Shown here: positions 5,931 through 8,456 of the stretch, in pieces | How the letters are laid out: each line of letters begins with the position of its first letter | How positions within the stretch are numbered: the first letter of the stretch is position 1 | Assembly: GCA_026016225.1 (NCBI GenBank) | Contig: CP061210.1 | Span: forward strand, 2,000-65,999 | Direction of reading: 5' to 3' | DNA: 64,000 bases | Source: Candidatus Nealsonbacteria bacterium | GTDB taxonomy: Bacteria > Patescibacteriota > Minisyncoccia > Minisyncoccales > JANBVM01 | Made by a program: the position numbers and the translations under genes | Notes under the pieces: generated by a model | Told to the model about the DNA's origin: nothing | The model's database searches: none | Seen by the model: only the letters and a program-made list of their open reading frames with translations

Positions 5931-6056
5931 AAATACTTTAATTAAAAGTTAGTTTATCAAATTTTTGTTTATATGCTCTAATTTTATCACTAATAAATTC
6001 TAGTGTCTAATTCGATATCAAAAAATGGCTTAACAAAGCCATTTCTGGACCCTAGC

Positions 6057-6389
6057 TCCGGCGGCAGGATTCGAACCTGCAACCTAGTGCTTACACATTA
6101 TCCTAGTGTTTCCACTAGGGGTGGACTATCTCATCTCCAAGACATAGAAGTCTTACGGAGCGGGGCGCTTCCCCATCCAGAAATAAAATATTCTGGACTA
6201 GTACTCCCTTCCGGGATAGTCTCTGAACCTTCCATGAACCCTACGGTTCAGGGCTTGGCTGCGGATTACCATATTTTAACTTTTCTTAAAACTTAGGCTT
6301 CCCGCAATTCACCCCGTTTTTCAACCTCGATTTCTCGAAGAAGCTGCGATATTTCACAGGCACCCGCGCTACCATTGCGCCACGCCGGA
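6057..6389 (-). tRNA. tRNA-Asn(GUU) interrupted by a group I intron in the anticodon loop
   Basis: Exon 1 (6389-6356): TCCGGCG TG GCGC AATGGTA GCGC G GGTGC CTGT. Exon 2 (6094-6057): TAA GCACT AGGTT GCAGG TTCGAAT CCTGC CGCCGGA G. The joined loop is CTGTTAA. U1-A72 plus G73 and UCCG...CGGAG ends match bacterial tRNA-Asn. CCA is not encoded. Confidence 0.8.
6095..6355 (-). ncRNA. group I intron (IC3-like, tRNA-type), ~261 nt
   Basis: Core strings on the minus strand: TATGGTAATCCGCAGCCAAGCCC (6251-6270 region), GGAAGGTTCAGAGACTA (6217-6233) and GAGATAGTCC. From memory these match conserved P4-P6/J6-7/P7 segments of the Anabaena tRNA-Leu and Azoarcus tRNA-Ile introns. The 5' exon ends in U paired to G (CCTGT/GCGGG); the intron ends in G. 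Confidence 0.8.
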
Positions 6390-6393
6390 ATGT

Positions 6394-7065
6394 TTATTTT
6401 TTGAAAACCCCTGAAATCCAACCCATTATTCTTCGATGTAAATTTACATCACTTATTTTTATTCTAAACACCCCATAACGATGTTTCACTTTCCTTAATC
6501 TATGAGGATTATTCTTAGCAATATAGGTTTTTGTAAATTGTTTAAGAGGAATCTTGGTTATTTTCGACCAATATTTTTTTGCTTCTATTCTATTGAGATT
6601 ATCATGAATATATAAACTTCCCCTTAATCTCTTTTCAGAAACCTTACAGAATTCCCGAAGCCAGTTAGCCATAAATTTAATAGCTTTTGGGTCAGAATTG
6701 GTGATGGAAACATCTCCATCTGTTTTACCTCCCTCTCCATAATATAAGGATATCCCCGCTATAAATCTATCGTGCTTTGAAATATTCCCTACTTCTTTTT
6801 TACCTTTTGCTATTAATTTACGAGTTAACTCCTCCCTCTCTCTTTGTTTTTTCTTGGCTCCAATAATACTTCCTTTAAGAGCACCTGTCCTTTTGTTCAA
6901 ATATAGTCTTTCCAATTGTTTTCTACTTAACTGAATATCGCGCACCCATAAACTCACAGAAGATCTTGAAACACCCAATCTCTTCTGAATTGTTTTAACT
7001 GATAAGCCTTTCTTTCGTAGTTCTCTAGCTTTCAATTTTAACTTCAGTTTTCCTGCGTAACCCAT
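6394..7065 (-). CDS. HTH + LAGLIDADG-like homing-endonuclease family protein (free-standing)
   Basis: 223 aa. N-terminal HTH (LSVKTIQKRLGVSRSSVSLWVRD). Single LAGLIDADG-like motif FIAGISLYYGEGGKTDGDVSITNSDPKAIKFMANWL. Ends 4 nt before the tRNA-Asn 5' end. Confidence 0.55.
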   Translation of the reverse strand: MGYAGKLKLKLKARELRKKGLSVKTIQKRLGVSRSSVSLWVRDIQLSRKQLERLYLNKRTGALKGSIIGAKKKQREREELTRKLIAKGKKEVGNISKHDRFIAGISLYYGEGGKTDGDVSITNSDPKAIKFMANWLREFCKVSEKRLRGSLYIHDNLNRIEAKKYWSKITKIPLKQFTKTYIAKNNPHRLRKVKHRYGVFRIKISDVNLHRRIMGWISGVFKK

Positions 7066-7226
7066 TATTTAATTCTTTCATTCTGAACCCTGAATGTCAA
7101 GCTATATAACCTTTGTTCTACTATTAGATTATTGTGTAATATATAACTTCTAGTTTAATATAATCTAAATTTTAAAATTTGTGAAGTCTTCTGTATAAAA
7201 TGTTATTTTCTCCCTCAAATACCAAC

Positions 7227-8456
7227 TTAATATCCTTTTAATTTCTTCAAAGAACGATGTTGACGGATTTTTTCAAGGGCTTTTGCTTCAATTTGACGAA
7301 TTCTTTCACGTGTTACCCCGAATACCTGACCCACCTCTTCCAAAGTATGAGTAATCCCATCTTCTAAACCAAACCTCATTGATAGAATCTTCTGCTCTCT
7401 TGGGGTTAAATCAACTAAAATCTCTTTTAATCTCTCCCTAAGTAAAACTCGAGCTGCATCCAAAGAGGGAGAAATGGTTTTTTCGTCTTTAATGAATTCA
7501 GCTAATATTGAATCATCTTCATCATCTCCCACAGGTGTTTCTAACGATATTGTTCGCTGAGAAATTTTCATTAAGTGATGAACTTTACTAACCTCAATTC
7601 CCATTTCAGCTGCAATCTCTTCCGGTAAAGGGTCTCTGCCTAAACTTTTTAAAATCCTTTTCTTTGCCTTGTTAAATTTTGAAAGGGTTTCAACCATATG
7701 AACAGGTATTCTGATTGTCCTTGCCTGGTCAGCCAAAGCTCGGCTGATTGCTTGCCTTATCCACCAGGTAGCATAGGTGGAAAATTTATAACCTCTCCGC
7801 CAATCAAATTTCACAACGGCCCGGAAGAGACCAAGGTTTCCTTCCTGGATCAGGTCAAGGATGGTTAAGTTAGGCGACCTGCCAATGTATCTTTTAGCGA
7901 TTGAAACCACTAATCTAAGATTAGCTCTGGCTAATTTCTTTTTTGCCTCTTCATCTCCTTTTTCAATTCTTTTTGAAAGTTCTTTCTCTTGGTCTGCAGT
8001 TAAAAAGGAAACCCTACCAATCTCTTTTAAATACATTTGAACAGGATCAATTTTTCTTGCTCTACTACCAGTTTTCGTTTTCTTTTCCGGCACTAAGAAC
8101 TCTTTAACATCTTTTACTTCAATTCCTCTTTTCTCTAATTCTTCATAAAATCTTTCTAAACCTTTGATGTCTTTTTCTGCTTCGGGGAAAAAGTATAAAA
8201 TCTCAGAAACAGTAATAAAACCTCTTTCCTGACCTTTATTAATCAGTTTTTCAACTTTCTCCTCAAGAAAAACACCCTTTGAACGAGTTCTTGTAAGTCT
8301 TTTTCTCTTTTTTCCCACCAACTGGCGGGTTTTCTTTGTTCTTTTCTTTTTACCTTTTCTTACCTTTGTCTTTTTCTTTGGTTTTACTTTTGGTTTTTTC
8401 TTCTTTTTTCCCGCCAACCAGCGGTCCTCCAACCGGCGGGTTTTCTTTTTTAACAT
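7227..8456 (-). CDS. rpoD: primary RNA polymerase sigma factor RpoD, with Lys-rich N-terminal extension
   Basis: 409 aa. Regions 1.2-4.2 are clear ([58 protein letters not shown]). Follows dnaG, as in the classic operon. Confidence 0.95.

Follow-up and report, generated by a model that had tools for sequence, protein, structure and literature searches.

The window, i.e. the whole stretch of 64,000 nucleotides of Candidatus Nealsonbacteria DNA that was analyzed, harbours on its minus strand a gene of 223 codons (P0001, 6394-7065), with its ATG start codon at 7065 and its TAA stop codon at 6396-6394. Upstream of this gene and on the same strand lie dnaG and rpoD, and downstream of it a tRNA-Asn(GUU) gene spans positions 6055-6389 with a group I intron inside. 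The original prediction placed the open reading frame (ORF) outside the intron, with its stop codon 4 nt before the 5' end of the tRNA on the same strand, and the coordinates bear this out: the gap between the stop codon and the first tRNA base (6389) consists of the four bases ACAT. The 661-kb complete genome has 45 tRNA genes, and ARAGORN recognized no tRNA-Asn among the 44 others. Splicing of this tRNA is essential, because the split gene is the sole tRNA-Asn gene of the genome. The features of the locus are the following.

7227-8456, minus strand: rpoD (sigma-70), conserved in this order as the gene to the left of tRNA-Asn
7157-7185, minus strand: older promoter of tRNA-Asn (TTCACA-17-TATATT), separated from the tRNA by the cassette in this genome; it directly precedes tRNA-Asn in genomes G082 and G004
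7108-7138, minus strand: decayed tRNA-Asn 5' remnant, nt 1-31, 18/31 identical to a live allele (p about 0.0005)
7072-7100, minus strand: promoter-like site of the cassette (TTGACA-17-AAGAAT with a TG extension), ending 7 nt upstream of the ATG
6394-7065, minus strand: helix-turn-helix (HTH) plus LAGLIDADG-like gene P0001, 223 aa plus stop; homologs known, dN/dS 0.05-0.18
6931-7065, minus strand: N-terminal HTH domain, aa 1-45, resolvase/TrpR-like (Pfam HTH_23, E 5.6e-6; VIA)
6790-6924, minus strand: long linker helix, aa 48-92 (AF2 model, pLDDT 95), the end of which lies in the predicted dimer interface
6397-6786, minus strand: divergent single LAGLIDADG-type domain, aa 94-223, as judged from a profile match to I-DmoI and from VIA
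6724-6756, minus strand: motif GISLYYGEGGK, aa 104-114, in which E111 and K114 align with E117 and K120 of I-DmoI
6356-6389, minus strand: tRNA-Asn(GUU) 5' exon, 34 nt, ending in ...CUGU
6094-6355, minus strand: group I intron of 262 nt that contains no ORF (Rfam RF00028, 82.5 bits, E 6e-21)
6055-6093, minus strand: tRNA-Asn 3' exon

The intron interrupts the tRNA between the second and third anticodon bases (34/35). The last base of exon 1 is U and that of the intron is G, matching the requirement for group I introns. A hairpin (GGCTT-TGTT-AAGCC, followed by ATTTTTT) is located 15 nt past the 3' end of the tRNA (window 6020-6040, minus strand); it looks like an intrinsic terminator and is absent from the terminators listed by the scan.

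The ORF is a genuine gene. It is far beyond chance, because 619 relatives were found at 90% identity clustering and 4240 representatives at 50% clustering, and because it is under purifying selection (dN/dS 0.05-0.18). In the source annotations the members of this family are HTH regulators or hypothetical proteins. The full-length AlphaFold model, based on 77 homologs, has a pLDDT of 95 and comprises an HTH domain, a 45-residue helix and an alpha/beta domain. The N-terminal HTH that had been read from the sequence was recovered with Pfam HTH_23 (aa 9-43), and structural comparison with VIA matched this domain to the HTH of a serine recombinase and to a TrpR-like protein (Z 6.2-6.8).

A single LAGLIDADG-like block had also been predicted, and it is found as the GISLYYGEGGK motif in the C-terminal half. 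Profile and structure searches against LAGLIDADG families gave a mixed outcome. Pfam, NCBIfam and PHROGs, searched up to E = 10, returned HTH families alone and no LAGLIDADG model, whereas a profile of the domain and its family, run against all PDB sequences, had I-DmoI as its sole match (E 7e-4). In this profile alignment the family pattern GxxLYWGEGxK...NSDP...W coincides with motif 2 of I-DmoI (GLYVAEGDKTLKRLRIWNKN...W), with E111 placed on the catalytic E117 and K114 on K120. Among 77 diverse members at least 90% retain E111 and G112 is invariant, so that the motif helix ends in a conserved acidic residue and then Gly, and E111, G112 and K114 are all retained in 13/13 orthologs. The domain modelled alone (pLDDT 96) displays the alpha-beta-beta-alpha-beta-beta-alpha core of the LAGLIDADG superfamily with one helix added (aa 159-170, with YWS and the invariant W166) between strands 3 and 4. 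Its 11 top VIA matches were all LAGLIDADG domains, with Z values (5.2-7.5) that are modest and all below 8. They were led by the TliVMA intein (Z 7.5) and I-DmoI (Z 7.1, rmsd 3.0 over 81 residues), followed by WhiA (Z 6.9, 88 residues aligned) and E-DreI (Z 6.5); the others were I-Vdi141I, I-Tsp061I, two Thermotoga WhiA proteins, the intein homing endonuclease 2cw8, PI-PfuI and I-CeuI. Foldseek searches of the PDB with the full and the domain models yielded no LAGLIDADG match. The weak OmpA-like rows that they listed (TM at most 0.43, rmsd 6-12 Å) were disregarded. The domain is labelled divergent because of the modest Z values, the lack of a Foldseek match and the extra W166 helix. As judged from the profile alignment and the model, aa 94-223 thus form a divergent single LAGLIDADG domain in which the catalytic Glu and Lys are kept. 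In the ESM Atlas, structurally similar clusters carry automatic names as LAGLIDADG proteins, one of them viral (Uroviricota), and HTH proteins of 280-310 aa from Actinomycetota are also similar (TM 0.65-0.71). From these model comparisons, the HTH-LAGLIDADG architecture may extend beyond CPR bacteria.

The check for a dimer interface gave a predicted homodimer. Prediction with two copies of the protein scored 0.81, against 0.00 for the best control; this mark was reached by 20/30 proteins solved as pairs and by 1/23 solved as single chains. The runs agreed in at least 95% of the contacts, and the pLDDT of the partner was 84. The closest contacts, 102:102 and 106:106, are located in the motif helix, and the interface includes residues 80-95. 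The protein is therefore predicted to be a homodimer formed by packing of the motif helices, as in I-CreI, and this modelling result may reflect likeness to solved LAGLIDADG dimers rather than constitute proof.

Members of the family occur in 99/201 genomes of the same order, with 0-5 copies per genome, and several paralogs in this survey have in-frame stops. The Asn clade, to which P0001 belongs, is restricted to 13/201 genomes. Forty members were fetched, comprising 12 orthologs (58-78% identity) and 28 paralogs (32-44% identity). All 40 were found directly upstream of a tRNA gene and on the same strand. The 12 orthologs are all followed by tRNA-Asn; in the paralog clades the gene that follows is tRNA-Met+Asp, Phe, Arg(TCT)+His, Lys(CTT), Gln(TTG), Glu(CTC) or Arg(TCG). 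The tRNAs downstream of the 28 sampled paralogs are intronless without exception. From the adjacency in 40/40 cases and the intronless tRNAs of the paralogs it follows that the constant partner throughout the family is the tRNA gene, not the intron. No relative of the ORF was found by tblastn against the INPHARED phages, and no integrase, recombinase or partner gene was found beside the ORF in the loci that were read. A literature search found no paper describing a tRNA-linked family of HTH + LAGLIDADG proteins.

The Met clade has a further peculiarity. In L035 a second tRNA gene, the tRNA-Met(CAU) upstream of the nuclease gene, has a group I intron (1161-1374, Rfam 82.7 bits), and in L037 and L045 the upstream tRNA-Met(CAU) is likewise intron-bearing according to ARAGORN. 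The tRNA-Met directly downstream of the nuclease gene is intronless in these three loci. In L038, L044, L047 and L049, other loci of this clade, the upstream tRNA-Met is intronless.

Comparison of the region between rpoD and tRNA-Asn among related genomes showed the ORF to be an insertion. The rpoD gene was found in 187/201 genomes, and its downstream flank was fetched from 60 genomes without an Asn-clade ORF. In 51 of these 60 flanks tRNA-Asn comes after rpoD in the same orientation, nearly always at ~20-500 nt and in one case at ~1.1 kb. An rpoD-ORF-tRNA-Asn arrangement in 13 loci thus stands against an rpoD-tRNA-Asn arrangement in 51 ORF-less loci, a presence/absence polymorphism at one conserved site. 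In the nearest ORF-less relatives, G082 and G004, the spacer consists of the promoter CTTCACAAAT...TTTAGATTATATTAA, after which the tRNA follows. The window retains this promoter at 7157-7185, followed by a cassette of ~0.8 kb and then by the tRNA; the ~0.8-kb indel comprises the ORF alone. The polymorphism is also visible within genera. In genus g99 the ORF is present in G171 and G197 and absent from G105 and G142, with homologous flanks, and in genus g104 it is present in G118 and absent from G150. G135 has retained the last 27 codons alone (codons 197-223). This was the only decayed copy found in the 360-500-nt spacers between rpoD and tRNA-Asn of ORF-less genomes; the others contain unrelated small ORFs. 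The G135 remnant and the in-frame stops in paralogs show that degenerate and deleted copies occur, in line with a cycle of gain, decay and loss.

The insertion has left a trace of the tRNA gene upstream of the ORF. ORF-bearing loci contain a dead fragment that corresponds to the first 31 nt of tRNA-Asn; its position is fixed, with its end ~42 nt upstream of the ATG. The p value of the fragment in the window was obtained by fixed-position permutation with composition-matched shuffles, and its mismatches are mostly G to A. In other loci the fragment is preserved to various degrees (31/31 in L008, 27/31 in L025, 26/31 in L003, 25/31 in L022, 20/31 in L023 and 18/31 in both L021 and L012). Its 3' limit, nt 31, is the first base of the anticodon loop, and three bases separate it from the site of the intron. 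The dead fragment of L008 and of L025 differs at ~10 positions from the live downstream tRNA, the acceptor stem included, and therefore the cassette brought its own copy of the tRNA. The same kind of 5' tRNA fragment was found in the Lys(CTT) clade. A dead 3' tRNA fragment was sought downstream of the live tRNA and none was found; a borderline match in the window is the terminator-like hairpin. The original prediction offered an independent selfish element at the tRNA locus as one of its readings, and the empty-site alleles, the dead tRNA 5' fragment and the decayed copy all argue for it.

Directly after the fragment follows the block CTTGACA-N-GGTTCG-N-ATG, which is conserved in most orthologous loci and contains the promoter-like site of the cassette. 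Because this promoter ends 7 nt before the ATG, the mRNA is predicted to be leaderless, probably. The spacer between the -35 and -10 elements (7072-7100, minus strand, and homologous sites in L003-L032) is conserved and reads TTGTAGGTTCG, identical to the variable loop and T-arm start of tRNA-Asn. To judge from its letters, this stretch may be left over from an older copy of the tRNA or may be bound by the protein.

Other genes are present between rpoD and tRNA-Asn in ORF-less genomes. A GIY-YIG-like ORF was found in G115 (L082:29-355), and ORFs for four-helix bundles of the kind known from rRNA intervening sequences in G048 (L064:21-400) and G176 (L081:108-420); the tRNA-Asn of L064 and of L081 is intron-bearing. 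Six genomes have a membrane protein of 130 aa in this gap. The gap between rpoD and tRNA-Asn looks like an insertion hot spot.

The descent of the ORF was compared with that of rpoD. Pairwise identities of the two are loosely correlated (r = 0.47). Recent long-range transfer is unsupported, because no pair was found in which the ORF is much closer than rpoD. Vertical descent with many losses is possible on these sequence comparisons.

The relation between the ORF and the intron was analyzed in the same set of loci. An insert in tRNA-Asn was found in 12/13 ORF-bearing and in 10/51 ORF-less rpoD-linked loci (Fisher 2e-6, a value that overstates the association since related genomes are non-independent). 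Group I identity is confirmed at the Rfam gathering threshold in 7/12 of the ORF-bearing and 7/10 of the ORF-less loci, and the remaining inserts share the insertion site and the terminal motifs. In the intron tree, those of ORF-less loci are scattered among the ORF-linked introns. The intron of G150 is near-identical to that of G118, and G150 has an ordinary promoter and no trace of a cassette. Intact ORFs with the full motif precede an intronless tRNA-Asn in L003, L008 and L022, and ten intron-bearing tRNA-Asn loci are without the ORF. The expected co-occurrence of ORF and introns was thus observed in the Asn clade, but it does not extend to the 28 sampled paralogs. Longer inserts of ~514-529 nt are present at the anticodon site of tRNA-Asn in L104 (G180) and L120 (G092), loci of two genomes that lack the ORF; the insert of L120 is a group I intron by Rfam (90 bits).

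The ORF is probably a mobile, selfish gene for a LAGLIDADG-type nuclease that has docked on tRNA-Asn. The selfish cassette would comprise a promoter of its own, the ORF and a tRNA-Asn copy that is live, placed inside the former resident tRNA-Asn gene. Transcription of the ORF would start at its own promoter, probably giving a leaderless message, and RNase P would probably free the tRNA from the ORF transcript by cutting 4 nt past the stop codon. A tentative further proposal, held with clearly less confidence, is that cleavage by the product falls at the anticodon loop and makes the intron mobile in trans. The putative homodimeric enzyme would cut tRNA-Asn genes that lack the ORF, within or beside their anticodon loop. 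This position is suggested by the dead fragment, which ends at nt 31, by the intron site (34/35) and by the association with the intron. Repair from a cassette-bearing allele, from the rpoD side or from the dead-fragment side, would copy ORF, tRNA and intron together, and repair primed by the live 5' exon would transfer nothing but the intron, as in trans or collaborative homing. The essential tRNA-Asn gene of the host would be shielded by the intron or by a variant tRNA sequence. Immunity based on the intron cannot be general, because the ORFs of L003, L008 and L022 and those of all other clades precede intronless tRNAs. Anticodon-stem sequences of ORF-bearing and ORF-less alleles, compared with target and immunity in mind, showed no consistent difference.

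The original prediction also held that the ORF could encode a trans-acting homing enzyme or a maturase for the neighbouring intron. The linkage of 12/13 versus 10/51 fits trans homing. The same co-occurrence could be expected of a protein that assists folding or splicing of the ORF-less group I intron, the more so as splicing is essential in the sole tRNA-Asn gene and some LAGLIDADG proteins are known maturases. Such a function nevertheless fails the distribution test, because ORFs adjoin intronless tRNAs (L003, L008 and L022 with their intact motifs, and 28/28 sampled paralogs) and introns occur without the ORF at ten loci. Moreover, the HTH head is a DNA-binding domain, and a maturase function is highly improbable.

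A domesticated DNA-binding protein of the LAGLIDADG fold, resembling WhiA, that no longer cuts and regulates tRNA-Asn or itself would account for the HTH domain, for the presence of WhiA among the best structural matches, for the strong purifying selection and for the rough parallel between ORF and rpoD identity; the conserved TTGACA...GGTTCG block could then be its operator. It agrees poorly with the conservation of the metal-binding Glu and Lys, equivalent to E117 and K120 of I-DmoI, in at least 90% of the family, and with the patchy presence in 13/201 genomes that varies within genera, and the dead tRNA fragments, the deletion remnant and the in-frame stops of some paralogs point to insertion and decay. 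A regulator of this type is considered unlikely. Less likely again is another nuclease or binding role tied to tRNA genes, e.g. as accessory of a tRNA-integrating element or in defence or as a toxin. The protein gene is always located beside a tRNA gene, and small inserted genes of other kinds also occupy the rpoD/tRNA-Asn gap (L082, L064 and L081), but the loci that were read contain no integrase, recombinase or partner gene beside the ORF, and the indel of ~0.8 kb holds the ORF alone. The selfish nuclease gene docked on tRNA-Asn is the preferred reading.

To our knowledge, group I introns in bacterial tRNA genes almost never carry an endonuclease gene, and therefore the route by which they move is unclear. 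Trans homing by a free-standing nuclease gene on the same tRNA is a directly testable route for tRNA intron movement. On a wider and more speculative view, which we regard as possible rather than probable, CPR bacteria harbour a large and as yet unnamed family of HTH-LAGLIDADG nucleases, in which every clade would be specialised on the anticodon-arm region of one tRNA gene. Cassettes of nuclease plus tRNA would overwrite the resident tRNA, the nuclease would be the missing trans mobility and retention factor of ORF-less group I introns in CPR tRNA genes, and the intron would serve as host immunity. With its thousands of 50% clusters the family is a large source of compact, probably homodimeric DNA-targeting proteins, the natural targets of which would be tRNA genes, and annotation pipelines currently label it as helix-turn-helix regulators or hypothetical proteins. 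The dead tRNA fragments, together with allele replacement of an essential tRNA, point to one way in which tRNA genes turn over in minimal genomes.

Several known systems resemble parts of this arrangement. WhiA combines, like the ORF product, a LAGLIDADG fold with an HTH domain (Z 6.9). It is a conserved regulator with two degenerate LAGLIDADG domains, a C-terminal HTH and no known catalytic acids, whereas the ORF product has one domain, an N-terminal HTH, a retained catalytic Glu and a patchy distribution. Another known endonuclease reportedly targets the anticodon region of a tRNA gene that bears a group I intron, like the target proposed here. That enzyme belongs to a different nuclease family and is encoded inside the intron, whereas the ORF at 6394-7065 is located outside it.

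SegB of phage T4 is a GIY-YIG enzyme that drives inheritance of the adjoining tRNA region. SegB and the ORF family have in common that free-standing endonuclease genes are located among or next to tRNA genes. SegB is a free-standing homing endonuclease encoded in a tRNA gene cluster (PMC13096335). The ORF family differs from it in being LAGLIDADG-like and cellular (CPR), with each clade loyal to one tRNA identity.

The layout of the locus, with an ORF-less intron in a conserved gene, an adjacent endonuclease gene and strong co-occurrence of the two, is that of collaborative homing. The phage enzymes involved in collaborative homing are of the HNH or GIY-YIG type. The known cases concern protein-coding genes of phages, whereas here a cellular tRNA gene and a LAGLIDADG-like enzyme are involved; furthermore, a dead 5' piece of the tRNA is left behind by the cassette, and in the present case the proposed cleavage at the intron site is putative. 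Collaborative (trans) homing by a free-standing endonuclease encoded beside an ORF-less group I intron has been described for phage DNA polymerase and psbA genes (PMC3984707).

The closest relation of the domain itself is to I-DmoI and to the single-domain enzymes I-CreI, I-CeuI and I-ShaI, with which it shares the LAGLIDADG helix ending in an acidic residue and Gly. With I-DmoI motif 2 the sequence following the motif can also be aligned, and the alpha/beta core is common. Dimerization of I-ShaI was shown by cross-linking (PMC11270868), whereas the dimer of the ORF product via its motif helix is a prediction only. In CPR bacteria, single-domain LAGLIDADG enzymes have been described only from rRNA insertions, as for I-ShaI, in a paper that does not mention tRNA or free-standing genes (PMC11270868). 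Compared to the I-DmoI/I-ShaI group, the ORF is free-standing instead of intron-encoded, and its product has an N-terminal HTH and a 45-residue linker helix, an extra helix (YWS, W166) and no Pfam LAGLIDADG match. Where I-ShaI has an rRNA target, the ORF is tied to a tRNA gene.
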